A stretch of DNA of 64,000 bases from Convolutriloba macropyga (Eukaryota), in NCBI RefSeq assembly GCF_964194025.1, contig NC_134471.1, forward strand, positions 26,350,001-26,414,000, read 5' to 3'. A model generated the notes under the pieces. It ran no database searches. It was not told where the DNA came from and saw nothing but the letters and a program-made list of their open reading frames with translations. Of this stretch, positions 320 through 56,390 are shown one piece after another. Made by a program: the position numbers and the translations under genes. The stretch's first letter is position 1; each line of letters begins with the position of its first letter.

Positions 320-1066
320 TCAATAAAGCAACCATAACGTCAGATACGAAAAATCAAGATATTTGGGCTTAGATCATGTGAATCATGGGATTAACATAAT
401 GATTAATGTTGAAAGAGTTTAATCAAGAGCTGGCCCATCTGCAACAAGTTCCGCAATCCATAAGAAAAACCGCATCCAGTGTGTGTTCTGATTAATTGTT
501 TCCTCGTTCCAGTATTCACTAAGGGCCAATTGTTTGGCGTCCAAAAAAACAAACGTTGCAGCGCTTAGGAATAATGCAGAGAAATAGTGCAGATGTGTTA
601 AACGGGCACTCAGCAGACAGGAACTCTCTGATTCAGAACATTCGTCCTTCATTCAGAACAGAGTTCATTCTTTCCTTCAACATTCTTATCCGACAGACAA
701 CTATGAATCCAAATCATTTCGGGAAATTCATTATTAATGATTCCAACATAGGCTGTAGCGGCGAACTGTTAATGTAAAGGCAAGAAAGCAAGGGCGATGA
801 CAGGAAAACTTTCGAAAAGTAGCTGTCAAAGTTTTAAAATTAATTGATGTTCTTTCAAGTGACTAATTTGATTCAGCTAGTATCCATCAGCAACTGAAGT
901 AATCTGCCAATAAAGAGATTAAGTTATTAAATAGTACTAAGTACAACAACTTCTAATATAAAAATCAGTAAAATCTTTTGAAAACGAAAAGCGTATAAGT
1001 CAAAGAAAAAACAGACGATAACAGAAAAGAAGAATACAATTGGACATTCGAATTGAACATTATCAG

Positions 1067-3328
1067 TGTAAAGTCGTAACCAATAGGCTAAGACCACAAC
1101 TATTAGAATTTTGGTCGTGAAACCTTCTTTTTTTAGTTAAACGGACAATTAAGTAAAGCAACTAGTGACAAAATAATAGCTATGAACAACGGACAACTTT
1201 TGAATACCTTTAAGTGAAAATAAAATGTGGACAGGGAAGAAGCTAACAAGCAGATTAGGGTCAGTGACGGCTGTAATGAGAGACTGAGAGCGGATTAATT
1301 TTGTTGAAACGGTTTAACTTGAACTCTTAGAAGTCGCAGGTATTCTATTAAAGATTGGGGATTTGTGGTGCACTGAGTGAGAGTTGGCGGAACCCCGGTG
1401 CATGCTGTTGTCATAAAGACTGGAGTCATAACAAATGTCATCATTATACTGTTATCATGAAAATGATTATATCATGAAAGTCGTTATAAAAGGGTTGAGC
1501 CATCTCTTTCTATTTCCTGCGAGAATTATTTATGGATATCCTAGCTCTCATGATGCCTGATAAATGCAAATGAAAGGCCGTTGCTACGCAGCTGAAGTTC
1601 ATAAACCGAAGATAACGTATTACTGACCTCAATGCATTTTAAAGGGATTTATATGAAATTGAGTTCTATAATGAATACTAGGCTGCTGTAATCCGCGAGT
1701 AGCTTGTTGCAACGAAGAAAACCGTTAGTAGTAACTGCCATGCATTATAAATGAAAAAAATTAGAGTTTTACAAAATACCCGATTTTGGTCAAATCTGAA
1801 AATTTTTACAAATTGGGACTGAAAGTTTGTCCACCCCCACCCCCGATTTTGCAAACCCGATATTGCCGAACCCAACCGGGATCACCAACACCCTAGAGGA
1901 CCTCTAAGCTCTTTGTGTACAAGAATTTGTAGTGACAGCTTTACTAGGCGGGTAGCCATTAAAACTTATAGGGGGAAAAGTGATAATTTTAGGAGAAAAT
2001 CCAATAACGCTGATTTTCAAATCCATGAAAGCCACCTATTACAGGGTGTAATAAGGCCTTGAGCCCATGCCTGAGTAGGCCGAATGGAAACCGTACCCCC
2101 CAAACCGCCTTATGTAAACAAAAGACCGGAAACGTAGGATCGGCCGAGAACTAAGCGTGGACCGATTTGTCGGCCATTTTGAATTATTTCGTTTATCACG
2201 GACGTACGACGCAACCAGGCCGTAAACCTGCAGCGGGTGAGTGGACGCGCGCGGACGGTACTTTAGGAACCCCCCTATGTAAACAAATTGCATGTAAGGA
2301 CAGAAAAATCCGGAATTCACATATACGTAAATTTGGCGGCCATCTTGACTGACGTTTAATAAGTATGTGTTGGTATTTAACACGTCACCATATTACGGCA
2401 TTGGTATTGCGGACTTTCAACGAAGTAGCCAATAGCAGTATAGAAGGCTGAAAGCCTTGTGCAATAATGACGGTTGTTTGGTTTGAGTAAACAAACTGTT
2501 TGCTCGGCTCAGTATATAAGCGGCTTACACTATAAGCGCAGCGGAGAATTTGCTAACCGTGAACGAGTTAATATTCGATTGTTTGGCATAGTTTGTCGGT
2601 ATTATTGAGCTAGAGGCTCTGTGAATCGTTATTGAGCGTCGTTGCGTTAACTTTGCCGGAGCGATTGAGCGCGATGCTCTGAATAGTCGCTGTTATAGAA
2701 TTAGAGTTATTTGGCTAAGTTTGCCTGATTTGATTGAGCGAGAAGCTCTGAGTAGTCTTTGCAGTTCGGTTACGTTATTGAGCACCGATTGCTGTTGCAA
2801 ATGAGCGAGAGGCTCAGGAACTTGCATTATATGATTGAGCAAGGGAATCGGATTAGTTATAGTTATTTGGCAGCGTTTGCCTGATTGAGCGAGAAGCTCG
2901 GACTTATTGTTGTTGTTAGACTGTGGTTCATCAGTCTGTTATTAGCTGAGGGATAATTCCAGCTGTTTGATTGCGTTTGAGTATAGGCGGCAATCGGTAT
3001 TATAGTAGAGTTGAATCGAGAAACAACTTAGTTAGTTATTGTTTCAAGCTTGTGGTTGCTTGTGTTAGAATCAGTTATAGTGGTAGTTATTTTGATTGTC
3101 ATAGTGCATGTTACCTGATGCCTATTGGGTTATTGTAATTAGCTATTAGAATTACTTATTTTAAGTGTTTTACCATCGACACTTTTGAACAGCCAAGAGC
3201 ATAGTACGGGAAATCTATTGTTGTTAAAAAGAAGACTAACCACCAAACTAAAATCCTTTCGAATTGTGAGATCTGGGCGCTATCGTTTTCCCGTGATAGG
3301 CAACCTAATCAAAATTCAGAATCTTACA
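1067..3328 (+). repeat. 5' LTR of giant-LTR element
   Basis: TG...CA termini; high identity to 7170-9429; TATA-like GTATATAAG at ~2512. Confidence 0.9.
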
Positions 3329-3329
3329 G

Positions 3330-3347
3330 TGGTGCTCCTGGGTGGGC
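3330..3347 (+). other. Primer-binding site (tRNA 3'-end complement; resembles Asn/Ile tRNA ends, identity uncertain)
   Basis: TGG (complement of CCA) one base after the LTR end, followed by TGCTCCTGGGTGGGC. Confidence 0.65.
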
Positions 3348-3367
3348 TTCTTCTTCAGCGGGACACA

Positions 3368-6096
3368 ATGGAGCGGAAATCTACGAGTGGTGATAATGTA
3401 TCGAAACAACGACAGATGCGAGGGGGATGGCAACGATCGGTGTGACTTTGGCTCAGGTCCAGGACAAGTGGCGAGCAAGTAGGGCGAAGAGAACAAAATA
3501 CACAATTGACAGAGGAATGAAGAGATGGAATTGTTGGAGATGGGTAGACAGCTCTTCTAAAATGTTTCGATCATGTTCTAATGGACGTGTTGTGGATTTG
3601 GAGCAAGTAGATCGCTGGATTGCGGACAATGGACTTAACTCAACAAACGTGTTAGAAATGATGCGAGAACAAGTAGAGGCGAAACCAGCCCCCGGTTTCT
3701 ACAGGCAGCCGTAGGACTTAGAGGGATGTGAAGACTATAGAGCACCGACGGTGAGCTACGCCGAACAGGATGTTGAGACGATGACTAACCTGGACGAGAT
3801 AAGTTCCAGACTGCAAGCCATTCAACAAGGCATCCACGCATTTGAAAGACATGACCCTATGTGATGGTAGAAGACTTCGCACAACGTGTTCATCTGTGGA
3901 GTTTAGAATTGAGCTGCTTGGAAGAAGGGGAACGAGATGACATAACCATCGACGTGATGTGACAAAAGCTCGCGAGGAATTGAAGGAGGGGCTCGAATCG
4001 AACCACAACTATAGCTATTTCGAAGAAGTTGTCTGGGAGCTCCAGAGATTAGAAATAGAAACTGGAATCCTCGTCCCAGAATCAAAGACCCTAAGTGATG
4101 GCAGCGAGGTGGCGGTGTACCAAACATCGAGCGAGTGGTTAACCCGTAGCAAAGAAAATGAGACCCTGCAAGGGAGAATACTTGAAACTGAAAAACTTGT
4201 AGAGGAAGCCATCTCCTCTAAAGACAAAGGCAATTCCACAGCACAATCAATTCCGAGCACTGAGAGGGAAGTGGAAAAGGAGACTGATGTGACTCTCAAC
4301 AATCTCGAACTGGAAGACACAGCAGAGGCAAGTGCCGAACCTGGAGTACTAGACATCGACTGGTCCAAGAGTATGGAGCTAGAAGGAAGCGAGCATGAGT
4401 TGGACTCGCTGATAGAACACGAGTTAGACAACTTAACTTTTCAAACACCAGAGGAACTGGTAGCCAATTTTGCGGAGCGGGTAATTGCTTGGAGCACCAA
4501 TCTTGATCTCAACGAGGCGGACATAGAGTACGCCAAGATTCAAGCGCTTTGGTTCAGAACGACAGATCAGTTCTACCTTCAATTGCCTAGAGACAGAATT
4601 TGGAGCCACATGCCAGGTCTAGTGGAAGACATGCAGGTGGTGGAGTGGCAGATCAATGAGAGACTGCAAGAGTCGGTTGAGCGCAACGAATTAGTGGGAA
4701 CTGAAGCAGCAGCAGCTAGTGCAGTCCTGGAGACTGAGGAGCCCAAAAACACTGATCAGTGGGACCAACGAAGTCAAAGAGGGTCTACTGAAAACTTTCT
4801 GGTTGACAGTAAAGAGTCAGAAATGAATTATTTAGCTCTACCCACCAGTGAGAGGACAATAAAAACCTACCCCTTTCCTCACAGAGATGAGCGAGTGGAC
4901 GAAGTAATCACGTTGTGCACTCAAAAATGTCCATTACTGAAAGTAGTGGCAGTAACAGACGGAGACGGACTGAATTGCGAAAGTCTTGCCTCCCAAATTG
5001 GCACGCAAGAAGACAACCCAGACAATCACAAGACAGCTGGTCCGTCAAAGGAGAAGGGAACAAATGTGAAAGAAAGAAAAGCAAGTAGAGGATGCAGAAG
5101 ACGATTTAGAGTTTGTCACCAAAAAAGAAGATCGAGCGCAAGGCAACGCTACCGGAGCCTACCTGAAAGCTTATCTGAGGAAGCCTTGCACTCTGATTAA
5201 GCGACAACACCGCTTCAGCAGGAGGAGAATTAGATGATGGAAAGACAACTGAGCTGGTCCAAAGCAATTTGCAGCTATCCCCAAGACTCCCGACGAATGA
5301 GGGGCCTGATGAAGGGCCGCAACACAGCCAAGAACACGCTGACTTCGGCCCTCCGACCCCGGATTGCGAGGAGAGCTACTCAACAGATTGGGAGCGTCCA
5401 CCCCCTTCCCCCGTTTTGATAGATGAGAGGCAAGGCAGTCGGAATCGGGAGGATGCACAACCACAGGGAGCAAATTTTACGGTCAGAGAATTAATTGACG
5501 TTAACACGTCGAACGAGCAGCTAGCCGTCGAACATTTGAGTGCACATCTTGGCTCAGGCACAGACTATAAAATTGAGTTCAAATCTCAGTTGCATGCGGC
5601 TGACCATTGGCGGGAAGCGATTGGTCTGGAGGCACCAGTGGTAGCTAACAGTCAGGAATTGTTCTCCAGTAGTAGCACGGAACTTGATCCGGCAAGTAGC
5701 GAGAGAAGCGGCTGCCAAAAGGAAACCCCTTACCAGGAGGAATTGACGACAGAACAGAACCCCACAGGACCTAACCAAAGCAGACCAGCGAACCTGTCTG
5801 CGCAAAAAGCAGGAGCGACGGACAATCAAAACTTTCTTCCAGCGGACGGGTGGGAACAAAACCACAGATGGAGTCAAACCCTACATGCAGGCCAGCCAAA
5901 TTCTGGTCAACTTCCGGACGGGAGAAACATGTCTCCCAGCCGATGGGCAACAATGAAGGGAACCCAGTCAGAGTGTAGAAGGGAGGAGAAGCAGGAACAA
6001 GAAAGAGGAATCATGTGGGTTAGTTCAATGGAAACTCAGATCCTTGGTGTGGCTTATGAAAGCCCGTTTGATCCAGGTCCTTCACGAAGTCCGTAA
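3368..6096 (+). pseudogene. Disrupted long ORF of the giant-LTR element (acidic, helical, gag position; fragments 3427-3714, 3959-5200, 5269-6096)
   Basis: Same-strand, purine-rich coding-like ORF fragments joined across stops and frameshifts; no CCHC, YxDD or DDE motif recognised. Confidence 0.55.
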
Positions 6097-6457
6097 GACT
6101 TTTCAAATTTCTTGCTCATTAACTTTTGCTCTATTCATTCATGGTGCTAAAGAACCTCCATTTGTGCTGTAAATATCACTAAAGTGGTAAATTGTTGCCT
6201 TCAGGGCCAATTGACAGCAAGCAATCACAAGCTAGAACTCAAATATGACTCGGCAAACAAATAGGTAAGGTGATATAGAAACATGTATTGGTTTAGCAAA
6301 TGTCAAACAGCATAATATGCACTCGCCAGTTAAACGTAAACAAACCAGGGATCATTGTTAAGAATCAACAGTCTGAAGCCGGTTATCTTTCAGTTGGCAT
6401 CGCGAAACCGCTTAACTAGGCTACGTAGAGAAAATACGGAGAAACCAAAAACTATAA

Positions 6458-7015
6458 ATGGATACGCAGTTTAGCGTGAGGCAAGCACTGCAGGACGATG
6501 GAATCTTCTCATCAGAAGAAGTCAAAGCCGCTGCCAGGAACGTAGCGTGAAGACTGGGAAGGGACCTTAAAACTGATGTTTACCCGGCGATGCTCGAACT
6601 GAAAGTACGGCATCTCAACACGTGCTTCTTTGCCCATTGGGATTATTCTATCCACCAAGTGCTCATCTATATGGATCAATCATACATTGGACAACCAGCA
6701 TTGATGGCCAACGAGATACACAGGCTCGATGTTTTCCAAAGGAATGGGGGTACTCCAACTAAAGATGGGAATATTGGAGGAGTCTCTGAAGAAACACTAA
6801 AAATACTGCGATTTTTTGAGAAAGGTGCAAAGTTGAAGAAATATAGAGAAATATCAAAGGTGTGGTGGAGCCCAACCGAGGGAGCGCTTTTTCAGAGTAT
6901 GTACGACAATCTTAGGGAAGGGAACGTTAGTGGGATCAATTTGGCAGACGATACGCTCAGGAGCTTGATTCTGAGGCAAGTGATAGAGCGAGCCGATGAA
7001 GAGGCGGAAGCTTAA
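6458..7015 (+). pseudogene. Second ORF of the giant-LTR element (~185 aa, one in-frame TGA at 6548), unknown function
   Basis: ATG 6458 is in frame with the 6590-7015 ORF; only TGA 6548-6550 interrupts it. Confidence 0.5.
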
Positions 7016-7169
7016 ATTGGACACTTAAATAAGATGAAGAACATTGGCCTAATCGAAAACTTTTTGTGTGTTCGAAAAGTCTTGGGCTAAACGTTACAAT
7101 TTTACTGATAGTGCATTTTGATCTGATGTTAAATTTATCCAGGAGGATAAAGAGTATAGAAGGGAGGTA

Positions 7170-9429
7170 TGTAAAATCGTAACCAATAGGCTGAGACCAC
7201 AACTATTAGAACTTTAGTCGTGAAACATTTTTTTTAGTTAAACGCACAATTAATTAATGCAACTAGTGACAAAATAATAGCTATGAACAACCGACAACTT
7301 TTGAATACCTTTAAGTGAAAATAAAATGTGGACAGGGAAGAAGCTAACAAGCAGATTAGGGTCAGTGACGGCTGTAATGAGAGACTGAGAGCGGATTAAT
7401 TTTGTTGAAACGGTTTAACTTGAACTCTTAGAAGTCGCAGCTATTCTATTAAAGATTGGGGATTTGTGGTGCACTGATTGGGAGTTGGCGGAACCCCGGT
7501 GCATGCTGTTGTCATAAAGACTCGAGTCATAACAAATGTCATCATTATACTGTTATCATGAAAATGATTATATCATGAAAGTCGTTATAAAAAGGTTAAG
7601 CCATCTCTTTCTATTTCCTGCGAGAAATATTTATGGATATCCTAGCTCTCATGATGCCTGATAAATGCAAATGAAAGGCCATTGCTACGCAGCTGAAGTT
7701 CATAAACCGAAGATAACGTGTTACTGACCTCAATGCATTTTAAAGGGATTTATATGAAATTGAGTTCTATAATGAATACTAGGTTGCTGTAATCCGCGAG
7801 TAAATTGTTGCAACGAAGAAAACCGTTAGTAGTAACTGCCATGCATTATAAGTGAAAAAAATTAGAGTTTTACAAAATACCCGATTTTGGTCAAATCCAA
7901 AAATTTTTACAAGTTGGGACTGAAAATTTGTCCATCCCCCCCCCCGATTTTGCGAACCCGATATTGTCGAACCCAACCGGGATCACCAACACCCTAGAGG
8001 ACCTCTAAGCTCTTTGTGTACAAGAATTTGTAGTGACAGCTTTACTAGGCGGGGAGCCATTAACACTTATAGGGGAAAAGTGATAATTTCAGGGAAAATT
8101 CCGAAAACGCTGATTTTGAGTTTCATGAACGCCACCTATTACAGGGTGTAATAAGGCCTTGAGCTCATGCCTGATTAGGCCGAATGCGAACCGTACCCCA
8201 CAAACCGCCTGATGTAAACAAAAGACCCAAAAACGTAGGATCGACCGAGAACTAAGCGTGAACCGATTTGTCGGCCATTTTGAATTATTTCGCTTATCAC
8301 GGACGTACGACGCAACCAGGCCGTAAACCTGCAGCGGGTGAGTGGACGCGCGCGGACGGTACTTTAGGAACCCCCCTATGTAAACAAATTGCATGTAAGG
8401 ACAGAAAAATCCGGAATTCACATATACGTAAATTTGGCGGCCATCTTGACTGACGTTTAATAAGTATGTGTTGGTATTTAACACGTCACCATATTACGGC
8501 ATTGGTATTGCGGACTTTCAACGAAGTAGCCAATAGCAGTATAGAAGGCTGAAAACCTTGTGCAATAATGACGGTTGTTTGGTTTGAGTAAACAAACTGT
8601 TTGCTCGGCTCAGTATATAAGCGGCTTACACTATAAGCGCAGCGCAGAATTTGCTAACCGTGAACGAGTTAATATTCGATTGTTTGGCATAGTTTGTCGG
8701 TATTATTGAGCTAGAGGCTCTGTGAATCGTTATTGAGCGTCGTTGCGTTAACTTTGCCGGAGCGATTGAGCGCGATGCTCTGAATAGTCGCTGTTATAGA
8801 ATTAGAGTTATTTGGCTAAGTTTGCCTGATTTGATTGAGCGAGAAGCTCTGAGTAGTCTTTGCAGTTCGGTTACGTTATTGAGCACCGATTGCTGTTGCA
8901 AGTGAGCGAGAGGCTCAGGAACTTGCATTATTTGATTGAGCAAGGGAATCGGATTAGTTATAGTTATTTGGCAGCGTTTGCCTGATTGAGCGAGAAGCTC
9001 GGACTTATTGTTGTTGTTAGACTGTGGTTCATCAGTCTGTTATTAGCTGAGGGATAATTCCAGCTGTTTGATTGCGTTTGAGTATAGGCGGCAATCGGTA
9101 TTATAGTAGAGTTGAATCGAGAAACAACTTAGTTAGTTATTGTTTCAAGCTTGTGGTTGCTTGTGTTAGAATCAGTTATAGTGGTAGTTATTTTGATTGT
9201 CATAGTGCATGTTACCTGATGCCTATTGAGTTATTGTAATTAGCTATTAGAATTACTTATTTTAAGTGTTTTACCATCGACACTTTTGAACAGCCAAGAG
9301 CATAGTACGGGAAATCTATTGTTGTTAAGAAGAAGACGAACCACCAAACTAAAAACCTTTCGAATTGTGAGATCTGGGCGCTATGGTTTTCCCGTGATAG
9401 GCAGCCTAATCAAAATTCAGAATCTTACA
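7170..9429 (+). repeat. 3' LTR of giant-LTR element
   Basis: Preceded by a PPT, ends TTACA, followed by the TSD copy. Confidence 0.9.
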
Positions 9430-9812
9430 ATTAGCATAAAATTCCAATGAGTCTTATCATTAAGGAGACTAAGAGATTAAACAAATTGAGCAATAAAACT
9501 AGTAAAACCTTTAAATATTGATAATATTTTCGAAAAGTCAAAGTCATAGAAAGGATTAACTGAAACCTTGATTTCAACTGAAACATTTAAATCGATTAAA
9601 AGAATTCACATTAAAACCAGCCTGCAAGAGCTAGAAGAGAAAATGATGATTCTCTTTTCCTCTACGATGCGCTAATAAAAATTGAAGTTTTGACTGAAGA
9701 AAATAACCGGCCTCAAATATATTCACCATTTTGGAAAAAAACGTTGGAACAAGAAATTCAACAATCATAAATAGCATCGATTTCATCACGAAATCCACGT
9801 TTCATTACTTAC

Positions 9813-9921
9813 TTCTTTCCTTTTGAGTTTCTGCGTAAACTCGTCTGTGATTCGTTGGATTTCAAGTTGTTTTAAGTTTAACTCCGCCATCTTGGCTTTG
9901 TACGCTTTCTCCACTGTTGAT
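9813..9921 (-). CDS. Coiled-coil gene exon 6
   Basis: Acceptor CTCTCAG, donor GTAAGT, 109 nt open with a heptad-like peptide. Confidence 0.82.
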
Positions 9922-12900: not shown

Positions 12901-15900
12901 CACTCAGTATTCCAGTCTCACAGACCTCAAATAACTCTATTTTGAATATTTTTAGTCCTTAATTATTAAAAGAGAACAAAAATCATGCCAAATCGCAGCA
13001 ATAAAATTTTGAAGCAACAATTACATTAACTAATAAAATTGCTAAAAATAAAATTTGTTTTTGTAAAACGAAATGCTTCAGTCTGAGATAACATTTTAAC
13101 ATAATAAAGATTCCCTTCTTAAAAGATCTACATTAAACTGGTTTCAGCAAAGTCAATTGCATAAATACTGATCGTATGTTCTTCTTCTCATCAATTCTTC
13201 TCATATTTGTCTTCAATAGGCAAATTCCACGCATAAAATATTATCGCAGATCATTGACTCAAGAAGGCGTAGAAAAGTAAAAGACACTTCAGATTTTTTC
13301 AAAAGTAAAAATTGCGAACATAAACCACTAATTTAGGGCAAATTGCTCTCAGACGACTGACAAGCGGTTGGCTTCGTCAGCAGCTAACTGCGGCCTAATA
13401 AGGCTAGCTTAAGTTTAATTGAGGAGTTGGGTGAGAAGTGCATGATGAGCAGTGAACGGGGAAGGGTCGTGTGCCCGGTTGAATGAGGTGCGGTAGGGTT
13501 GATGAAGGGAAAAAGGGTAGAGTGGGGGTGAGTGGGGCGAGGGCAGGTGCTGAGTGGGCGGTAAAACTCTATAGAACCGCACTTTACACCATAAATTCAT
13601 GCCTCCTCATTGGAACCCAGGCGTTACGAGCATATCCCGTTCTTGACGGAAAGTAAAAAAAAATCAGAATATTCGACGAAAAGTTAGTAACACGAAGAAT
13701 TGCAAAAAACATCAGAACTAATATAGTTGCTACAAACATCGTTTCAGAGAATTTCAAAACTTTACAATAGCAGATTGAAACAATCTAGAGATCAATCAAC
13801 CGAATTAAATTTGAGAGCAAATGAAATTCTTACAGGTTCATAGCGACATTAAATATTTTCTCTTTTTTGCAGTTAAAATTGAACAAAAAGATTGACAAAA
13901 ATTCTCAGTTACAAAACAGCTTATACGACAGTTAAAAAGTGAAAACAATGGATGATTGTTAGGAGTGCATAATTTGTTTTTTGTTCATCCTTATAGTTTT
14001 TTGTTCTTATTTTTTCCAGCAAGCAATTGTACAAATGATGCTTTGAAGAGAAACAGCTTTTTGATTAAACTCTAAAGTGATAAAATCTTGAATTATGCAA
14101 TGCGAGGTTTGAATTGATTTCAATTCAGATTTAATTCGTAACTAATGAGTTTTCTGTCTGTTCAAAGTTGTACAGTTTTATCAGATTAAAATTTAGTGGA
14201 CACCTCTAAAACACAGAAAATTTTTTATTTAAAACAACCGTTTAGATTTACTATAATGAAACTTGTGAATAAATCAAACTTACAGACCGATAAAAACAAA
14301 AAAAGATGAATAATTATGACGCGATATCAAAATCTGTTATTTTGCAACATCGAAGGATATGTTAGTTGATAATTTTGTATTCAGATATATTTTTACGTGG
14401 AGATTAGAATACAGTTAACATCTTCATTCTAAATTTTAAATTGTTCTCTTCTAGAGCAGACACTTTGAGCTATCATACAAAGTTGTCACCTAAGCCATCA
14501 ACCCAAATAGTTCTCCGTATCAACTTTTCTGTAAATTTGTGTCCTCAAGTGATAAACCTCAACAATTTGTAGGAAGAGCAATACAGGGAACAAAATATCA
14601 ACCATCCCATTTCAAACAAAAGAAGTTATATAAAACATTCCACCAGCACAATGATCATGATTATGAAAAACAAACTTGAAAGCTTTCCGTTGAAATTAAT
14701 TATGTTTGATGCATTCAATAAACAGCAGAGTATGTTCTATGTGCGAAGAATACGCTTTTGCACAATGCAATCAAAGCTTAATATTTGTGAAAATCTAGCT
14801 TATCTGAAATTTCTGAAACAAGGGAAAAAACTGAATGAGAGGCACAAATTGAGATTGCTATGACAGTTATTGTTTAAATAGGAGGAATTTTTAATTCTTA
14901 AAATCTTTTTTAATTTGAAATTTGGGATCTTTCGAACAATTACCCCACTTTTCCAAGGGGGGGGGGGGGGTTGGGCAATTTATTAACCAATCAGAGCCGA
15001 CTGCTAAATATCAACGTATACGCATACTATGTTAAACTGAGGAGAACAAAAGAGGCCATGCAGTCACAATCAGCCAAATTGGAATATAAAGCGAAATAAA
15101 TTTCCAACTGGCGGGTCAGTGGGCGCGCTTCGTTAACAAAAATTGACAATTTTTGAAAAGATCCAAAATTTGTTCAAACGCATACTATTTGCAAGTTAGC
15201 GGGAAATTCCGGAAGGGAAGAAAGCAAAAGAAAACGTTTTAAGAGTTTGCGAGCTCATATAATACCTGAGATTAAAATGCTATAAAAGATTGTTCTGTAT
15301 AACAATTTTTGGGGCTGGCAAATTAAAGTTCAAAATTTGAACCAATCGAGAAACTTGTGATTGTTCCGGCCCACTTTATTGGGGGAGAAACTATATTCCA
15401 AACTCGTTATTTATTGTTTAGTCAATTTTAGCCGATCGATATATTCATAGTTCTGAAGTTCAACATTGGAAAGCTTGCCAAAACGTAGAATATTAAATTA
15501 ACAAGGGTTCTCTTTTATTTTCAATTTTTGAGAGGAATTAGGAAGGCAGTTTTGAGGTTTTTTGAACGTTAGCCTCACTTATGTATTTTTGTTTGCATTT
15601 TCACAGCATTTGCATAAACATTTAATTAATTTTACTACAAAAAACGATGAAATTGATAAAGAGTGTCATTGGTTGTAGCTTTTGACGATAAAAGAGTTGC
15701 TGAACTGTTCAGAACAACACTTTTGACTAAAATTTGGGCTAATATTTGAGAAATTCGGCAGATTTTTCATATTTTCTTTTTCTTGATAATGGCACCAAAT
15801 ATGCTTCTTTAGTCCAATTTGACCAAATTGTCCAAAGAGACAAAAAAATTGACGAAATAGTTCTTGTTCATCCAGATGATGGTTGCTTTTATCTCCGTTT

Positions 15901-18900
15901 CTTAACAAAATATTCCTGAACTAACAATTTGGCGGACTTTATCTATTTTAAAGTGATATTTATCAAAAATACATAACTTATATTTGATATATTAATATTA
16001 CCGTCTGCCAACATATCTATTACACAATTAGTTGGTAAAATAACGTTATTAATTAGCTGAGCAGCGATAACAAGTCCTTTTGCAATGAAAAAGTATCCGG
16101 ATTGTATTTAAACTCTGTACTTTGTAAAATATTTCTTGCATTTTTTCATCCGCCCTTTCAACCTTCCATTTAGAGGTTCAGTCACTGAGAGGTTCCATTC
16201 ATGATCAAACGAGAACCAATTTAATTTTTTGAGTGTCTTCTGAGTAAAGCTCATAGTTTGTCTCCCACGAACTTGAAGTAAATGCTTATTGAGTTCTTAT
16301 GTTTTACCAGCATAGGTTGTTCTTTTTGCTGTCTTATGATAGAGTCTAACCAATCAAAAGTCTACTTCGCTTTCTAATCGAATTCTTCAGCTGATACCTA
16401 ATGGATTTTCAATCAAACAACCTGACAACTATCCAAAATTCATAATTTATTAATCATCAAATTCATCATTTGGAACAATTTGTTTTAAGGGACAAAAAAC
16501 AGAAAAAGGACAGTTCACGTCTAAGATACTGTTATAGCTTTTATTTATTTTAATTAAATACCAGAATTATATCAAAGCAAAACTCACATAGTGATAGATC
16601 AAATTTAAGTGCAAATGAAGCCCAACGTACATTAAAATTTCGGCGAAAAGAGTAGTTTTTAACCTTTATTACTCTGTTTAAGTAAAATTGTTTGCAATTT
16701 GAAGTCTACCTGTGCTTGTTGCTATCTATTTGGTCTTTTGACTTAAACACACTAATGAGTTGATAATTGGATTCCCAAACACTAAAATGTTCATCTAAAA
16801 AATTTCTTAGTTGAACACTTTCGCTTGTTATAATTTAGGATTTTAATAAATTCGTTTTCAAAAAAAATTATTGTTTTTTATATTTTGCCAAATTTTATCA
16901 CATTTTTTTCACATTGTAGCGCGGTGTCGACAAGTCATTTTTTTAAATGACTCAGTTTTGTTTGCTCTTTCATCATTAGAAAAACTGTTTTTTCGCCTTG
17001 ATACTACCTTTATATATTCTTGGACATTTTCAAGCTTAAAGGTAACTTTTCTGTCTTGTCCGATGGTCGCATTAAGCACAAGTCATATGACACATAAGTG
17101 GCGTTTAAAGAATGCGCAATTGGCCATATTTAGTTTTTTTATGATCAATAGATTATGATTTTAAAGGCGTCGACTCCATTTTCTCGCTAAACATAAGTGA
17201 CTGTTTGATTTTGCATGTATTTGTTCATTTTGTGGTCGCATAACATTCTTAATAATGACAAGTCTCAAGGGCTTCCTATTGAGGTATAAATTGAGTTTTG
17301 GTTGTAATCAATGTTAATTGTTTTCATCTGATTTTGTTTTTTGTCTTGACTCTATTTTTCTGTAATGGCAGGTATCATCGCTCCTCTAATGAGGAATTCT
17401 TTATTTTGCTTATTTTTGTAATTTTTTTGCGATTTTTTGAATACATCAATTATTTTTGAACAATTCATGAATTCTTGAAAGCTTCCTATCTCTTCCTCAT
17501 CTAATAGGCAATTAAGTCAAAAATGTGGTTGAGCTGGGTCGGAACATTATGTGCAAACGCACATTACCGAGTTTCCTTGCTTTGTTTTTACCTACAAAGG
17601 CTAATTAAAAAGCTGATCGTGACATTTAAGAAATGAGTTGTGTTCCTAATATGAAAAGTTGAATTTTTTAATTCCTAGCAATTAATTCCTGTATTTTAAT
17701 TCCTAACAAAAAATGATCAAAATACCCAGAATTTTATGGAAAAAATTTCCAACAGAAAATATTGCGAGCTTTTTATTTGCTACCAGGTTCTAGAATATCC
17801 CTTTCGGCAAATTTTGAGCATGCTTAATTTTTTAAAATCAAAAGTACATTGCTGTACATACTTTTATAAACAATGAAAAGTAGATCGTTTTAAGAATTTG
17901 CATCAAATTTGTAGTTTGATTTTGTCTGGTTTAAGAAAATATATAATGAAACTCAAGACTGCAAATTGACCTGAACTTTGAGCCATTTCTTCAGCTTTTA
18001 GGTGTACTTAACTGGATCTTGATGATATATTTGCTTTATTTGTTGTCTCTGAGCAAGGTGAATCATAAGACCCTCTTAATCAGAATGTCGACATCAGAAT
18101 GCTCAATCAAATTTGCACGATGAGCGGTGAACGGTCGTGTGCTGGGTTGAATGAGGTGGGGTAGGGTGGATGAAGGGAGGAAGGGTAGAGTGGGGGTGAG
18201 TGGGGCAAGGGCAGGTGTTGAGTGGGCGGTAAAACTCTATAGAACCGCACTTTACACCATAAATTCATGTCTCCTCATTGGAACCCAGCCGTTACGAGCA
18301 TATCCCGTTCTTGACGAAAAAAAGTAAAAAAAAATCAGAATATCCGACGAAAAGTTAGTAACACGAAGAATTGCAAAAAACAGCAGAACTAATATAGTTG
18401 CTACAAACATCGTTTCAGAGAATTTCATAATTTTACAATAGCAGATTGAAACAATCTAGAGATAAATCAACCGAATTAAATTTGAGAGTAAATGAAATTC
18501 TTACAGGTTCATAGCGACATTAAATATTTTCTCTTTTTTGCAGTTAAGATTGAATAAAACGATTGACAAAAATTCTCAGTTACAAAACAGCTTTTAGCAC
18601 AGTTAAAAAGTGAAAACAATGGATGGTTGTTAAGCGTGCATAACATAAATTGATTTCCGGCATCCTTATAGTTTTTTGTTCTTATTTTTTCCAGCAAGCA
18701 ATCATACAAAAAATAATGCTTTGAAGAGAAACAGCTTTTTGATTAAACTCTAAAGTGATAAAATCTTGAAATATGCAATGCGAGGTTTGAATTGATTTCA
18801 ACTCAGGTTTAATTCGTAACTAATTAATTTTCTGTCTGTTCAAAGTTGTACAGTTTTATCAGATTAAAATTTAGTGACACCTCTAAAACACAGAAAATTT

Positions 18901-21900
18901 TTTATTTAAAACAACCGTTTAGATTTACTATAATGAAACTTATGAATAAATCAATTTTACAGACCGATAAAAACGAAAAAAGATGAATAATTATGTCGCG
19001 GTATCAAAATCTGTTATTTTGCAACATCGAAGGATTTTTTAGTTGATCATTTTGTATTTAGATATATTTTTACGTGGAGATTAGAATATAGTAATCATCT
19101 TCAATCTAAATTTTAAATCGTTCTCTTCAAGAGCAGACATTTTGAGCTATCATACAAACTTGTCACCTAAACTATCAACCCAAACACAGTTGATAGTTCT
19201 CCGTATCAACTTTTCTGTAAATTTGTGTCCTCAAGTGATAAACCTCAACAATTTGTAGGAAGAGCAATACAGGGAACAAAATATCAACCATCCCATTTCA
19301 AACAAAAGAAGTTATATAAAACATTCCACCAGCACAATGATCATGATTATGAAAAACAAACTTGAAAGCTTTCCGTTGAAATTAATTATGTTTGATGCAT
19401 TCAATAAACAGCAGAGTATGTTCTATGTGCGAAGAATACGCTTTTGCACAATGCAATCAAAGCTTAATATTTGTGAAAATCTAGCTTATCTGAAATTTCT
19501 GAAACAAGGGAAAAAATCTGAAATTTCTGAAACAAGGGAGAAAAACAAATTGAGATTGCTATGACAGTTATTGTTTAAATAGGAGGAATTTTTAATTCTT
19601 AAAATCTTTTTTAATTTGAAATTTGGGATCTTTCGAACAATTACCCCACGTTTCCAAGGGGGGGTTGGGCAATTTATTAACCAATCAGAGCCGACTGCTA
19701 AATATCAACGTATACGCATACTATGTTAAACTGAAGAGAACAAAAGAGGCCATGCAGTCACAATCAGCCAAATTGGAATATAAAGCGAAATAAATTTCCA
19801 ACTGGCGGGTCAGTGGGCGCGCTTCGTTAACAAAAATTGACAATTTTTGAAAAGATCCAAAATTTGTTCAAACGCATACTATTTGCAAGTTAGCGGGAAA
19901 TTCCGGAAGGGAAGAAAGCAAAAGAAAACGTTTTAGGAGTTTGCGAGCTCATATAATACCTGAGATTAAAATGCTATAAAAGATTGTTCTGTATAACAAT
20001 TTTTGGGGCTGGCAAATTAAAGTTCAAAATTTGAACCAATCGAGAAACTTGTGATTGTTCCGGCCCACTTTATTGGGGGAGAAACTATATTCCAAACTCG
20101 TTATTTATTGTTTAGTCAATTTTAGCCGATCGATATATTCATAGTTCTGAAGTTCAACATTGGAAAGCTTGCCAAAACGTAGAATATTAAATTAACAAGG
20201 GTTCTCTTTTATTTTCAATTTTTGAGAGGAATTAAGAAGGCAGTTTTGAGGTTTTTTGAACGTTAGCCTCACTTATGTATTTTTGTTTGCATTTTCACAG
20301 CATTTGCATAAACATTTAATTAATTTTACTACAAAAAACGATGAAATTGATAAAGAGTGTCATTGGTTGTAGCTTTTGACGATAAAAGAGTTGCTGAACT
20401 GTTCAGAACAACACTTTTGACTAAAATTTGGGCTAATATTTGAGAAATTCGGCAGATTTTTCATGTTTTCTTTTTCTTGAAAATGGCATCAAATATGCTT
20501 CTTTAGTCCAATTTGACCAAATTGTCCAAAGAGACAAAAAAATGACGAAATAGTTCTTGTTCATCCAGATGATGGTTGTTTTTATCTCCGTTTCTTAACA
20601 AAATATTCCTGAACTAACAATTTGGCGGACTTTATCTATTTTAAAGTGATATTTATCAAAAATACATAACTTATATTTGATATATTAATATTACCGTCTG
20701 CCAACATATCTATTACACAATTACTCGGTACAATAACGTTATTAATTAGCTGAGCAGCGATAACAAGTCCTTTTGCAATGAAAAAGTATCCGGATCGTAT
20801 TTAAACTCTGTACTTTGTAAAATGTTTCGTGCATTTTTTCATCCGGCCTATCAACCTTCCATTTAGAGGTTCAGTCACTGAGAGGTTCCATTCATGATCA
20901 AACGAGAACCAATTTAATTTTTTTTGTCTTCTGAGTAAAGCTCATAGTTTGTCTCCCACGAACTTGAAGTAAATGCTTATTGAGTTCTTATGTTTTACCA
21001 GCATAGGTTGTTCTTTTTGCAGTCTTATGATAGAGAGTAATCAATCAAAAGTCTACTTCGCTATCTAATCGAATTCTTCAGCTGATACCTAATGGATTTT
21101 CAATCAAACAACCTGACAACTATCCAAAATTCATAATTTATTCATCATCAAATTCATCATTTGGAACAATTTGTTTTAAGGGACAAAAAGCAGAAAAAGG
21201 ACAGTTCACGTCTAAGATACTGTTATAGCTTTTCTTTATTTTAAAGAAATACCAGAATTATATCAAAGCAAAAATCACATAGTGATAGATCAAATTTAAG
21301 TGCAAATGAAGCCCAACGTACATTAAAATTTCAGCGAAAAGAGTAGTTGTTAACCTTTATTACTCTGTTTAAGTAAAATTGTTTCTAATTTGAAGTCTAC
21401 CTGTGCTCGTTGCTATCTATTTGGTCTTCTTTTGACTTAAACACACTAATGAGTTGATAATTGGATTCCCAAGCACTAAAATGTTCATCTAAAAAAATTT
21501 CTTAGTTGAACACTTTCGCTTGTTATGATTTAGGATTTTAATAAATTCGTTTTCAAAAGAAATTATTGTTTTTTATATTTTGCCAATTTTTATCACATTT
21601 TTTTCACATTGTAGCGCGGTCTCGACAAGTCATTTTTTACATGAATCAGTTTTGTTTGCTCTTTCATCATTAGAAAAACTGTTTTTTCGCCTTGATACTA
21701 CAAGTTTTCATAACCTTTATATATTCTGCGACATTTTCAAGTTTAAAGGTAACTTTTCTGTCTTGTCAGATGGTCGCATTAAGCACAAGTCATATGACAC
21801 ATAAGTGGCGTTTAAAGAAGGCGCAATTGGCCATATTTAGTTTTTTTATGATCAATAGATTATGATTTTAAAGGCATCGACTCCATTTTCTCGCTAAACA

Positions 21901-23014
21901 TAAGTGACTGTTTGATTTTGCATGTATTTGTTCTTTTTGTGGTCGCATAACATTTTGAATAATGACAAGTCTCAAGGGCTTCCTATTGAGGTATAAATTG
22001 AGTTTTGGTTGTAATCAATGTTAATTGTTTTCATTTGATTTTGTTTTTTGTCTTGACTCTTTTTTTCTGTAATGGCAGGTATCATCGCTCCTCTAATGAG
22101 GAATTCTTTATTTTGCTTATTTTTGTAATTTTTTTGCGATTTTTTGAATACATCAATTAGTTTTGAACAGTTTATGAATTCTTGAAAGTTTCCTATCTCT
22201 TCCTCATCTAATAGGCAATTAAGTCAAAAATGTGGTTGAGCTGGGTCGGAACATTATGTGCAAACGCACATTACCGAGTCTCCTTGCTTTGTTTTTACCT
22301 ACAAAAGCTAATTAAAAAGCTGATCGTGACATTTAAGAAATGAGTTGTGTTCCTAATATGAAAAGTTGAATTTTTTCTTTCTGCTTTTCTTGCGTATTTT
22401 AATTCCTAACAAAAAATGATCAAAATACCCAGAATTTTATGGAAAAAATTTCCAACAGAAAATATTGCGAGCTTTTTATTTGCTACCAGGTTCTAGAATA
22501 TCCCTTTCGGCAAATTTTGAGCATGCTTAATTTTTTTAAATCAAAAGTACATTGCTGTACATACTTTTATAATCAATGAAAAGTAGATCGTTTTAACAAT
22601 TTGCATCAAATTTGTAGTTTGATTTTGTCTGGTTTAAGAAAATATATAATGAAACTCAAGACTGCAAATTGACCTGAACTTTGAGCCATTTCTTCAGCTT
22701 TTAGGTGTACTTAACTGGATCTTGATGATATATTTGCTTTATTTGTTGTCTCTGAGCAAGGTGAATCATAAGACCCTCTTAATCAGAATGTCGACATCAG
22801 AATGTTCACATCGATAAATTGATTACCTTAAGAATTCGGCATATGTTAAAGGTTTGCGTCGCCTCCTTGATGACAGGTCGCCCCTCTCCCCCGAGGGGTC
22901 ACTCTCATACCCCCCAGCTGTGGAACCCGCTTCGGACTCCGTGTCGTCATCAGTGTCATAATCAGGACCCCCAATCCGCTCCAGTGGGGTCAACTTCGAC
23001 CGGGCAAAAACCAT
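9813..23014 (-). CDS. Uncharacterised coiled-coil protein gene, exons 23014-22827, 12265-12073, 11068-10960, 10567-10470, 10385-10306, 9921-9813; 3' part not found in the window
   Basis: All junctions are GT-AG and intron phases chain correctly (2,0,1,0,2,0) into one open frame: MVFARSKLTPLERIGGPDYD...FLR/AQERAFGPD...LRTIE/QNIALTRAKK...KFES/VVSGRMDKK...KRKE/KSSARSVE...DLQL/STVEKAYKAKMAELNLKQLEIQRITDEFTQKLKRKE. Confidence 0.8.
10306..10385 (-). CDS. Coiled-coil gene exon 5
   Basis: Acceptor TTTCAG after an 84-nt intron, donor GTAAGC, 80 nt open. Confidence 0.78.
10470..10567 (-). CDS. Coiled-coil gene exon 4
   Basis: Acceptor CTGTAG, donor GTCACT, 98 nt open. Confidence 0.75.
10960..11068 (-). 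CDS. Coiled-coil gene exon 3
   Basis: Acceptor GTTTAG, donor GTCAGT, 109 nt open. Confidence 0.8.
12073..12265 (-). CDS. Coiled-coil gene exon 2
   Basis: Acceptor TTCTAG, donor GTACGT, 193 nt open. Confidence 0.8.
15361..17585 (+). mobile_element. Helentron/DINE-1-like non-autonomous element (HINE-like), copy A1
   Basis: 5' TTGTTCCGGCCC; near the 3' end the inverted GGGTCGGAACA (17536-17546), then hairpin ATGTGC-AAAC-GCACAT, then CCTTG and a T-run. Confidence 0.6.
20055..22292 (+). mobile_element. HINE-like element, copy A2 (duplicate of 15361-17585)
   Basis: Same subterminal inverted repeats and 3' hairpin (22243-22271). Confidence 0.6.
22827..23014 (-). CDS. Coiled-coil gene exon 1 (start codon)
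   Basis: ATG at 23014; donor GTAATC after AG (phase 2). Confidence 0.7.
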
Positions 23015-30400: not shown

Positions 30401-33400
30401 TTACAGGCATTGCAAAAGGCTTCAAAAGACATTCCATTTATTCTCGTTGATCCAGGTGCACTAAAAATCGCAGATCACTCTAGTTATACGATTACCATGA
30501 AGAGGATTTTTCGATATTATGAAACTTCGCTAATAGGGGTTACCGTACATGGTAAACAAAGCAAAGTGCAAATAATTTTTTTCCTTAGCATTTAAAGATA
30601 ACAAATCCGCGCTTACACTTGAGGTAGGTATTATAGAGAGAATGGCAAAGTAGTCTTTTGAATTGAGCTCTTCAATAGTGTTCAGATTGTTTACTTCTTG
30701 AAGCATCTGGCCTCAAAATAAGGATTTCGCCAAGATGTGAGAGCAGGGGAAAATTACGTGTCTCAAGTCGAGCAGGTGCCTTCTTTAATAAAGTTGTTTG
30801 AAATTTTAAATGAACAATTAAAATTGAGAAAACATATTAAGAAGAACGGAGAAGTTGTTTATTTCTCGAGCACTTCAAGAGATGCGAACTCCTGAAGTGT
30901 TAAAAATTTTAGAGCGATTTAGATCAGCTTATTTGTTCTAACTTCCGCCAATAATTGAGCATTGCCGAATTTACTATTACATTAAAGTTGGTTTTATTTT
31001 CTTACTATTTGACACTTAAAAGAGCTTATTTTCAAATCGCGAAAAATTATCAATTAGCCACTGAAATGGTAAACATCTTGAAAAAGTCTCCCACATAAAA
31101 CTTTTATCGCAGAGGTGTCTATTTTAATAATATTCTGCACATAAAAGATTTTGTTGATTTAAAGTGTCAACTTCTTGAAAAATTCTGCTTTATAGTTAAC
31201 GGTTTGTAAGAGTTCAATTGCGTTGAAGCTGTGAAAGATTCAAAAACCTTATTTGCTAATTGAAAATAGACTTCCTCATAAAAGCAACTGTGGTGGAGGA
31301 ATCCACAAAACGCAACCAAGTATACCAAGTATTAATATAAACACTCTTAAACTATATACATATTTATCTTATGGTATAATCTCCATCCGTAGAACAAACT
31401 CATTTGTTGTCGTACGTACTTCTCTACATGTTAACACTTCACCAATTGGTGACAACGCATTGTACATAGATTGATGATTGTGATTGACATTTCTGTTAAC
31501 TGTTAACCACACAGTATAACTGGTACTGTGTCTTGACCAACAAGTGCGAAAGCACTCCGTTGCAGTTCTGCCTTAACGCGTTCAGAGATTAGTTGTTGAA
31601 ATTCAAGATTAACTCTTGCTCTTTTCATTAATAAGCGAATCGTATACAACATGGCGCAGTCAACTATGGCTCGTTCTCCACTAGGAGTAAATTTCTTTTG
31701 GGACAAAGGTCACCAACCCGAAATAGAATGGGAAAAATGGCTAGCTACAGTAAAACTAGCAATCATGGTAAAAGAAAATATACAAGTTGACAAGCTACTA
31801 CAACCAAGACCCGAAAATGAAGATCTTGATTACCCAACAGAGCCACACTACGAACCAGCACTACCTGATGAAACAACCGCCAAAAGAAGGCAAAGGGAAC
31901 AAAGAAACGTCAAAAGACGTACCGATTGGCAAAACTCATGCAAAGACATAGAAGACAAGGGACCACAAGTAGATAACATACCATGGGAAGAAGCAGATAA
32001 CAAAACAAAAAGCCACATATACCTCTCACTAGGAACACAAGCAACAAACACTTTCCACCAAAGATTCCCTCACACAGACATTCAAAAATGCACCACGGAC
32101 GCACTAGTAGAACAACTCAGAGAATCATTCATACAAACAAGGAATGAAACATTTGACAGATATCAATTCTTCCGATGCCGACAAAAAGAAGGCGAATCAC
32201 TAGAAGTATTCCACTCACGAATCAAAAAACACGCATCAGTCTGCAACTGGGAACACATGGAGGAAAGCCTTGTCAAGAGCATCTTCATGCAAGGAATGAA
32301 CAACCAGCAAATCCAAATGGATTTATTATCAGAGGCACGAACACCATCAGAGACACTACAATATGCACTAGCACGAGAAAGAGGACAAGAAAGCCAACAG
32401 ATAATGAGAAACACTTATACAAATACACTACAAGCAAACCCATGGTTCGAAAAAATTCAGTACATAAAACGACAAAACAGGGTCCCAATTCTCCCAACCC
32501 CACAATCAGGACAAATCCAAGACTGCCGACGCTGTGGCAACAAATTCCTCCCTGGCCACTTAAACGTTTGCCCCGCAAAAAACGAAATCAGCAGAATATG
32601 CAAGAAAATAGGGCACTTTGCAAAACAGTGCAAGTCAGGGATGCCACCACGTCCACAATACAACCCACAACAACGCAGACAACAAAACTATCCCGGACAA
32701 CAAACATATTCGGGCTACCAACAACAACAAAAGAGTAACCAATTGGTTCAAAGAAAAACATCACAGAAAATGAGAAACATAAATGAAGAAGAACAGGAGG
32801 ATATACACAATTCAACTGAAGAAACAATCGACCCAGAATCAACTTGCTACATTCGGGAAATGATGGAAGACTGACAAAACACAACAAACTTCATCCATTC
32901 AGTTAAATTTACAAATGAAAAAGTCAGCGACATCAACAAGACTAGAAGAGGGGAATTTTGGCTGAAAACATACACCAACAAAAAACAAACCTATTGGTTA
33001 GCCGATACAGGAAGCCCCAGGAGTTCCATGAACATCCAGACGGCAAAAAACCTACTAGTAGATAACAAGACAAAGATCCACCATCCGGATAAATCCTTGG
33101 GCGAATTCAGATGTTTCAACAACAACAAAATAAATATACTCGGCACAATCCACGTGGACTCCACGTCAGGAACATCAACTGCAAAAAACTGCACAATCCT
33201 ATTGGTAGACACCAATACAATAAATATTATGGGAAGAGACATCATGAAGAAACTAGGCCTCCGACTCACAATGGGAACACAACAAAAAGAAGGTGAGAGA
33301 AATTTACTCAACATAACAAACACCCATTTAAGAATATCCCAATGGATATTCCAAAAGTACCCACACCTATGCACAAGACTAGGTAGATCACAAAATCATG

Positions 33401-44569: not shown

Positions 44570-45112
44570 TCAATGTTTGGTTTTACGCGATTTCGAACCT
44601 GTAGCTTTTGACATTGCAACGGATTTTCTCCCTGATTTTGGACTAGAGGGGCCACTTTGCTTCGAAGATTTTTTAGCAGCTGGTGATTTACTTGTATCGT
44701 TACTCACGGATTTTTCCTCCTTCTTATGTAACTTTGACCTGGGAATTCTGAACACGCCGTTCGCTCCAACAGAAGCATCAGATGCGTGAGCAATGTCCCC
44801 TTCCTCCAACATGGACAAAATGTTCTTCCTAATAAGACCTGTCAGTCGATTTTCACTGACGTCATAGTTTTCCTTCACGTATTTCTGAATAGCAGCCCGG
44901 CTAACTCCAGCTCTGTTATGTAATGTAGTTACCGCTTCCGTAATCATATCACGAATAGTCTTTTTGGAACTTGAAGGGGGTTTGGGCGAAGTTTTTGACG
45001 TTGGCTTTGGGGACTCTTTTGACGCATCTTTCGTTTTATCGGGTTTTGATTTCTTGCTGCTTTGCTCTTCAGCTTGGCGTTCTTCCATTTTTCGCTTCGA
45101 ACCCTTTCCCAT
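44570..45112 (-). CDS. Linker histone H1/H5-like protein (180 aa, intronless)
   Basis: Globular domain MITEAVTTLHNRAGVSRAAIQKYVKENY...GANGVFRI flanked by K/S/P-rich tails with SPK motifs. Confidence 0.88.
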   Translation of the reverse strand: MGKGSKRKMEERQAEEQSSKKSKPDKTKDASKESPKPTSKTSPKPPSSSKKTIRDMITEAVTTLHNRAGVSRAAIQKYVKENYDVSENRLTGLIRKNILSMLEEGDIAHASDASVGANGVFRIPRSKLHKKEEKSVSNDTSKSPAAKKSSKQSGPSSPKSGRKSVAMSKATGSKSRKTKH

Positions 45113-45524
45113 TATAACAGGAATTTAGACAATTTCCAACACAAATAAATAATTCACAAGTTGAAGGTCAGATTTTATTTCGCAATGGGTGGCGGAATTT
45201 CAAGTAACTGATTTCAAAGTTTCAGACAATAGAGCAAAAGGCACTGAAAAAGGTCAAACAAAACGGTCATTGTGTCTGGTTAGAAAACTGAAATCAAAGC
45301 AATTCGAAAGACCTCCATCTAATGAGATTTTAGCAATTGCGGCTCAGGGGAGAATCAATAAAAAGTCAGGACATCTAATATGCATAGGTTCAGATTTTAC
45401 GCTTTTGTCCGCTTATACTTCGTATGTTCTCTTTTATTTCCCAACTCTATCAAACTACAGTAGAGGATGTAAATTTCCATCATGCAAAAGACCCGCACCA
45501 TATTTTCTTAAAATTTGAAACGTA

Positions 45525-55700: not shown

Positions 55701-56197
55701 TTATTTTTAGCTGAGTTTAAAAAAATAACAATTGAAATAAGAAACAATATTGAGATAAACGCTAATGGTTTTAATGGCTTCAATAATTAGTGTATTTTGC
55801 AACTTTTCTACAAAAGTTTTTCTACAACTTTAGTTCGTTTCTATGGTTTAGTCTAAACAAATATAGGTCATATCAGTTTAGTACGGCCATTTTAGTAAAA
55901 TTATCACGAATATTTCATTAAAGGCTTAAGGTTTTTAAGACGTTTGAAGTTATGATACGTTTTTAAAAATGTTGATTGAATTTTGCCCCATTATTTCTTT
56001 TTGTCGACCTTCTACCTAGTCCCATTAAGGAAAAAACCCATCTGCTGTTTAGCTAAGAAAAAGTAAATTTGTGTAGCTAAGTTTTTATCTGACTGCATTT
56101 TGACTTTGTTACTAGGTGCTTTTAAATTTAGATATTGAGGTTTTGCCGTGAAATGTTTGTTTTTCCTGATTTTGTTGTGTTTTATTCTCGTAGTCTT
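49180..56197. repeat. Head-to-tail tandem duplication, ~3.51-kb unit (49180-52689, 52690-56197)
   Basis: TTTAGAATACC at 49180 and 52690; identical ORF pairs (49376/52886, 49422/52932); TTT microhomology at the junction. Confidence 0.93.
50501..52689 (+). mobile_element. HINE-like element copy B1, 3'-truncated by the duplication junction
   Basis: 5' TTCTTCCGACCCCACTTGTGGGGGGAG; collinear with 54010-56197. Confidence 0.55.
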
Positions 56198-56390
56198 TTT
56201 GGTGGCAGATCTCATGAGCGCTGTAATGAGGCAAGGCATTATGTAATTTAATTAGTGGGTGTGTAAAGATTTTTTTAACTCAAACTTCTATTTTTGATTA
56301 TCTCTTTATTTGGTGGACAATTAAGTCAAAAATTAGATGAGCCCGGGTCGGAACATCATGGGCGAACGCACATTAACGAGCCTCCTTGTT
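54010..56390 (+). mobile_element. HINE-like element copy B2, complete
   Basis: Perfect 11-bp subterminal inverted repeat TGTTCCGACCC (54011) / GGGTCGGAACA (56345), degenerate 3' hairpin, ends CCTTGTT. Confidence 0.65.

Follow-up and report, generated by a model that had tools for sequence, protein, structure and literature searches.

A pol-less LTR retrotransposon family of Convolutriloba macropyga and its likely env-bearing Ty3/gypsy helper

How does a long terminal repeat (LTR) retrotransposon without a polymerase gene multiply, and what are the open reading frames (ORFs) that it carries? The question is raised by an element of 8363 bp, at positions 1067-9429 of a 64,000-nucleotide stretch of the Convolutriloba macropyga genome (NCBI RefSeq assembly GCF_964194025.1, contig NC_134471.1, positions 26,350,001 to 26,414,000, forward strand); this whole stretch is called the window, and its numbering is used throughout. 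A previous reading of the sequence alone (the sequence-only reading) had taken the element for a member of a non-autonomous family mobilised in trans. Here, we find that the element is a decayed copy of an LTR family devoid of both pol and env, and not a lone deletion. This family, the satellite, very probably relies for its multiplication on proteins encoded by an env-bearing Ty3/gypsy element resident in the same genome, its likely helper, as judged from the sequences that the two have in common.

A family of elements without pol

The anatomy of the window copy is as follows.

1062..1066, no strand: left target-site duplication (TSD), ATCAG
1067..3328, + strand: 5' LTR, 2262 bp, TGT..ACA
1739..2883, + strand: LTR segment in common with the helper LTR, 84% identical overall and about 90% in its 3' half, holding TATATAAG at about 2513
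3225..3328, + strand: LTR 3' end in common with the helper, about 83% identical
3330..3348, + strand: primer-binding site (PBS), complementary to the 3' end of host tRNA-Asn(GTT), 18 of 19 nt in this copy
3396..6096, + strand: ORF1, broken in this copy, acidic (D+E 18%)
3790..4070, + strand: ORF1 helical repeat 1, approximate bounds, with a weak likeness to the C-terminal domain of the Gag capsid
4380..4660, + strand: ORF1 helical repeat 2, approximate bounds, about 25-28% identical to repeat 1
5163..5165, no strand: site of a deletion of about 230 bp, confined to this copy and its segmental duplicate
6458..7015, + strand: ORF2, 185 codons, by sequence a homologue of helper ORF4, with one in-frame stop in this copy
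7141..7167, + strand: polypurine tract (PPT) region, near-identical to the helper PPT
7170..9429, + strand: 3' LTR, 2260 bp, TGT..ACA
9430..9434, no strand: right TSD, ATTAG

The description given in the sequence-only reading is largely borne out. The LTRs, which it put at about 2.26 kb each, account for 54% of the element and enclose an interior of 3.84 kb; they are very similar, as it said (97.3% identity; Kimura two-parameter distance 0.0275). The interior was said to lack reverse transcriptase, RNase H, integrase and CCHC motifs, and five frames of the window copy indeed gave no Pfam match at the curated cut-off, nor did four natural ORF1 and ORF2 proteins at E<=1. The stops and frameshifts that it noted are real, ORF1 being split into at least four pieces and ORF2 bearing its single stop; the roughly 230 bp missing near 5164 are present in other family copies. 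Its claim that all cis signals are present holds for the TG..CA ends, the PBS, which begins 1 nt past the 5' LTR, and the PPT, directly 5' of the 3' LTR, but the 5-bp TSD is imperfect (4/5). Most family copies match the tRNA-Asn 3' end at 19 of 19 nt, and a genomic search with the PBS complement plus a T-loop pattern returned 16 matches, the three inspected all being tRNA-Asn(GTT) genes. In two sequencing runs (contigs of unknown kind) the element was covered several times as deeply as its flanks.

A search of the genome with the interior gave 74 matches, collinear and at no fewer than 36 places, which is a lower bound because 37 of 62 candidates were scored; one further copy was found separately. 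The family elements measure 8.4-8.6 kb. The interior is complete in 30 of 35 fetched loci and measures 4011-4104 bp in 27 of the 30, the other three being the window's segmental duplicate, a deleted copy and an internally duplicated one. It had been asked whether other copies might hold a normal pol, the window element then being a single post-insertion deletion; none of the 30 complete interiors contains pol, and no pol-sized insert occurs in the 35 loci. Both ends could be mapped in 25 copies; of these, 17 are flanked by perfect and distinct 5-bp TSDs, three by TSDs matching at 4/5 and five by none, and the LTR pairs differ by K of 0.003-0.065 (median 0.024, n=25). Some satellite copies are tandem or internally duplicated (L039, L061, L047, L116, L134); in certain of these an LTR is held in common or the ORF2-PPT block occurs more than once.

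Remnants of ORF1, ORF2 or both survive, at 25-45% amino-acid identity, in about 15 older elements whose LTRs are related, and no pol was matched in these within the 10 kb fetched. The arrangement of two ORFs thus goes back a long way.

The likely helper and its shared LTR segments

The homologues of ORF2 led to a candidate partner: they are 201-codon frames of about 32% identity, ORF4, situated 3' of env in a gag-pol-env Ty3/gypsy element. The layout of this element is gag-pol-env-ORF4, with a zf-CCHC Gag and a Pol in the order protease, reverse transcriptase, RNase H, integrase. The env-like ORF is hydrophobic at its N-terminus and in a C-terminal segment, and also has an RSKR with a hydrophobic peptide after it; from sequence and hydropathy, the two ends read as signal peptide and transmembrane segment, the RSKR as furin site and the peptide as fusion peptide. 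Related env ORFs match Baculo_F weakly (E 0.1-0.15), and no viral match for the env ORFs was found among PDB sequences. The element has LTRs of about 3.1 kb, 95-99.6% identical within pairs in five copies and above 99% in three of these, and ten places in the genome match its env at >=86%, so that the satellite, with its 36 or more copies, outnumbers it.

The two elements have the same tRNA-Asn PBS junction and near-identical PPTs. Positions of about 660-1800 of the satellite LTR and its last 100 bp or so are common to the helper LTR; the 5' 600 bp and positions 1830-2150 are peculiar to the satellite. Since PBS, PPT, LTR segments and a small gene are all shared, the satellites likely ride on the helper's machinery, and an autonomous element of the kind that the sequence-only reading had proposed to look for, here with shared LTR segments and PBS, is present in the same genome. 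GTAAACA motifs, which we take to be forkhead-like, recur in the LTR (window about 2100-2600), and 5' of both ORF2 (about 6330-6350) and helper ORF4 (L106 190-390), and could possibly act as an internal promoter.

The relationship of the LTRs differs from that of the interiors. In LTR-core trees the satellites nest among helpers at several places, and monophyly is rejected both for satellites (approximately unbiased test, p=1.5e-38) and for helpers (p=1.9e-75). In the ORF2/ORF4 tree the 11 current satellite rows form one clade (100/99), apart from the helpers. This points to repeated swapping of LTR segments. One satellite, L056, matches a helper along 950 bp in each of its LTRs (97.7-97.9% identity), and in another, L048, the 3' part of each LTR is of helper type, which argues that the chimeras had passed through reverse transcription. 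The swapped segment contains the sole TATATAAG, and the swapping would thereby keep satellite and helper expression matched. Template switching in shared particles is its most likely route, to judge from the trees and the mosaics. Three considerations weigh against this account: mosaic LTRs could also arise if a source copy underwent gene conversion at the DNA level and subsequently transposed; the co-packaging of satellite and helper is something that we infer from their sequences; and the tRNA-Asn PBS is common to at least two other autonomous families, so that the PBS alone does not single out the proposed helper.

That last point can be made more precise. The junction of LTR end and PBS occurs exactly 150 times in the genome, and 19 of these loci, outside the satellite/helper pair, were examined. 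Eight have gag-pol-env and belong to two other families. The remaining 11, a 3' LTR being seen in nine, are pol-less and constitute two families whose acidic ORFs of 860-1240 codons begin in a clear N-terminal domain of Gag (E 4e-11, 5e-7). One of them (L141, L145, L154, L155, L157, L158, L160) has an ORF of 860-880 codons; the other (L142, L143, L149, L153) has one of 1242 codons with a PPD motif near its end. Both share LTR pieces with the other two autonomous families, and a piece from the second is 93% identical to the autonomous family of L146 and L156.

The presence of these two autonomous families with the same PBS, and an identity of only 84% between the window LTR and current helper LTRs, might suggest that the true helper is another family, or else that the satellite copies are mere post-insertion deletions of an autonomous element. 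We consider this very improbable. The 27 interiors of 4011-4104 bp are collinear and stand at separate sites with their own TSDs; the satellite interior has almost no DNA similarity to that of the helper and so is not a simple deletion of it; and none of the 19 other PBS loci appears among the listed matches to the satellite LTR. The pol-free collinear copies and the LTR-core tree tests together largely refute it. The idea of a non-autonomous family mobilised in trans is accordingly supported by the absence of pol from the copies and by an autonomous partner sharing LTR, PBS and PPT.

The two satellite proteins

Most copies are broken: of 30, four have an ORF1 that reads through 933-976 codons, the full length being about 976, and eight an ORF2 that reads through 181-185. 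The ORFs might consequently be viewed as inert remnants hitchhiking on the RNA, in frames that are open from youth only, the family being in effect a non-coding large retrotransposon derivative (LARD). Changes private to one of 29 interiors do behave neutrally (ratio of nonsynonymous to synonymous change, dN/dS, about 0.9; 46 private stops in ORF1 and 15 in ORF2). The shared changes, however, have a dN/dS of 0.31 for ORF1 codons 1-250 and 0.28 for ORF2, and include no shared stops. Net dN/dS, calculated pairwise between two subfamilies of 11 and 16 copies (L037 and L048 excluded), is 0.17 for ORF2 (bootstrap 0.009) and 0.40 for ORF1 codons 1-440 (bootstrap 0.001), against 0.67-2.06 for off-frame and spacer controls. 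In the older sister elements the same two frames are kept, at the identities given above, and synonymous differences (pS 0.44-0.91) exceed nonsynonymous ones (pN 0.27-0.49) in 15 of 15 comparisons. Comparison of the copies thus shows purifying selection on ORF2 and on ORF1 codons 1-440, and inert ORFs are improbable. The case for selection is lessened by the ORF1 tail, codons 441-976, which is near neutral (net dN/dS 1.01 and 0.83), and by the single off-frame control at 0.67 (bootstrap 0.06).

ORF2 is predicted to be a soluble, helical protein; neither it nor ORF4 has a hydrophobic segment (best 19-mer hydropathy 0.7). A homologue search yielded 19 matches, all unnamed and 77-95% identical, the best ESM Atlas score was 0.83, with mixed families, and no relatives outside this lineage were found by sequence, ESM Atlas or fold searches. 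The structure comparison that had been recommended was carried out on AlphaFold2 models of low confidence (predicted local distance difference test score, pLDDT, 40 for ORF1 36-232 and 54 for ORF2) and gave generic helical matches only (best Z 5.2 and 4.0; best viral Foldseek E 0.8), which speak neither for nor against a capsid fold.

ORF1 comprises two helical repeats of about 90 residues and then an acidic tail. We lean slightly towards regarding it as a remnant of Gag in which the capsid C-terminal domain is present twice and a long acidic tail follows. It occupies the gag position, directly 3' of the PBS; each repeat aligns to a QGEKES-type motif of the helper Gag (hhalign, P 0.012-0.016); and a merged profile of the repeats aligns over 75 almost gapless columns to the capsid C-terminal domain, a score reached by 3 of 200 block shuffles. 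The five named sets shown by ESM Atlas are all gag- or coat-related (0.83-0.85), at lead level only. An hhalign probability of 99.7% between the two repeats was set aside because it is inflated by shared alignment rows. A serious contender, to which we give somewhat less than an even chance, is that the satellite does depend on a helper but that ORF1 is an acidic protein either captured or arisen de novo, such as a factor against silencing or one that binds to the host, its capsid likeness being due to chance. The repeats' alignment to one and the same Gag motif, the position of the frame, the profile and the ESM Atlas sets speak against chance. In its favour are the lack of any Pfam, PDB or BLAST link of ORF1 to Gag, and the absence of a CCHC motif and of the Gag N-terminal domain that both sister families have kept. 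The searches themselves temper the Gag reading: ORF1-Gag hhalign probabilities are 1-4% (P 0.012-0.05) and that of the merged profile with the capsid C-terminal domain is under 3%; hidden Markov models of the Gag C-terminal domain score no better on ORF1 than on reversed decoys; Pfam gave nothing at curated cut-offs for the 48 rows of alignment A1, and PDB sequence searches with alignments A1 and A2 nothing below E 0.7. Among 1.84 billion representatives ORF1 had 15 matches (40-93% identity), apparently from this lineage only. BLASTP of ORF1 gave no match to the helper Gag, and only short stretches against the helper Env (E 0.02) and the integrase tail (E 0.004), which are not relied on. The ORF1 C-terminus (window about 5960-6096) resembles the tails of helper Env and integrase (DPG motif), and such stretches may be relics of helper sequence.

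The sequence-only reading had thus rightly seen that the element has protein genes of its own, but they are not wholly orphan, since ORF2 is related in sequence to helper ORF4 and ORF1 may be a heavily diverged Gag.

Under the helper-dependent reading, transcription of satellite RNA would start at a promoter in the part of the LTR that the helper also has, and the RNA would be taken up into helper particles and primed by tRNA-Asn; the helper reverse transcriptase would then copy it and the helper integrase insert it. Template switches between co-packaged RNAs would refresh the shared segment, so that satellite and helper continue to be expressed in the same cells. ORF2 and ORF4 likely have one and the same accessory function, and ORF1, probably Gag-derived, could bind helper capsids by its acidic tail. 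A bolder synthesis, which we offer tentatively and think unlikely to hold in full, is that of an animal errantivirus with coding satellites comparable to those of phages: the promoter would be kept matched by LTR swapping; ORF1 would be a remodelled Gag without nucleocapsid, its capsid C-terminal domain duplicated and its acidic tail long, which enters helper capsids or diverts them so that satellite RNA is favoured; a diverged accessory protein would be retained; and the strategy would have arisen three times within one tRNA-Asn clade, with different halves of Gag being kept.

Genomic setting and comparison with known systems

Two features, both on the minus strand, bear on the insertion site.

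9813..9921, - strand: host coiled-coil-like exon, donor side of a putative intron, ending in a GTAAGT donor
649..765, - strand: candidate next (last) host exon, 38 codons, predicted, with an AG acceptor at 765 in the same phase

Given this donor and the same-phase acceptor, the element would sit antisense in an intron of about 9 kb of a coiled-coil-like host gene, which the sequence makes plausible. A tandem duplication of 26.1 kb with 99.9% identity (window 320-26463 and G000:C4 ~26.324-26.350 Mb; L031, L066, L067) includes both element and host gene; the duplicate element is thus not an independent insertion, and the second copy of the repeat could be an assembly artefact. Further tandem duplications, 96-99% identical, lie at 13453-22808, 49180-56198 and 57326-61186, with spacings of 4.7 kb, 3.5 kb and about 2 kb. 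The window also contains a decayed Ty3/gypsy element at 31289-38222 (363-bp LTRs 98.9% identical, fragmented gag-pol), an intronless eIF3k ORF at 56607-57284 (minus strand; PDB match E 1e-45) and a linker-histone-like ORF at 44570-45124 (minus strand), labelled by eye.

In soybean, Du et al. in 2010 are said to have described SNARE (SARE/SNRE), an autonomous-nonautonomous partnership with LTR swapping. Like SNRE, the satellite is a high-copy non-autonomous partner apparently kept compatible by region-specific LTR exchange; unlike it, it inhabits a non-plant host, has a helper with an env-like ORF, and keeps a selected homologue of a helper accessory gene as well as a long ORF in the gag position. 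Among vertebrates, VL30, ETn/MusD and MaLR are non-autonomous LTR elements moved by a retrovirus-like partner with a related LTR or PBS; there is essentially no coding capacity in VL30 and ETn, and a single gag-like ORF in MaLR, which is not known to have a co-evolving helper; all are related to Retroviridae and not to Ty3/gypsy. The satellite is likewise an animal LTR element that probably depends on a helper, but it differs in its two ORFs and its Ty3/gypsy helper.

LARDs have long LTRs and a conserved non-coding interior. They are non-autonomous, longer than 4 kb and possess intact cis signals (PMC13570524). The satellite, at 8363 bp and without gag-pol enzymes, deserves the LARD-like label of the sequence-only reading for its size only, because its interior is coding, with two ORFs under purifying selection. 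The plant TR-GAG elements are mobile non-autonomous LTR elements of less than 4 kb with one Gag ORF (Chaparro et al. 2015, PMC4350172); the satellite resembles them as an enzyme-free element with an ORF in the gag position, but it measures 8.4-8.6 kb, has two ORFs, and its ORF1 is not recognisable as Gag in standard searches. Non-autonomous pararetroviruses exchange regulatory regions with their partners, as the satellite appears to do (PMC5491270). The helper, for its part, resembles the F-type errantiviruses, which are gag-pol-env Ty3/gypsy elements, in its layout and in an env-like ORF with RSKR and hydrophobic segments, but has a fourth ORF after env (Chary and Hayashi, PMC13524379); the main text of that paper does not mention "non-autonomous", "accessory" or "Asn". 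The sORF2 of the MDG1 group is also a small accessory 3' ORF of a Ty3/gypsy element, from which a transmembrane fusogen is made (Voichek et al., PMC11952523), and differs from ORF2/ORF4, which have no hydrophobic segment. In the literature within our reach, most subscription papers and Repbase lying beyond it, no coding non-autonomous partner of an invertebrate errantivirus was reported.

Surveys based on pol overlook pol-less satellite families by design. The present pair offers a concrete case for studying how non-autonomous LTR elements win packaging, and it brings to light an accessory protein, ORF2/ORF4, that both partners would seem to need. Helper-satellite pairs with LTR swapping have been described mainly in plants; the present host is no plant, and the likely partner is an env-bearing Ty3/gypsy element, an enveloped retroelement of invertebrate type.

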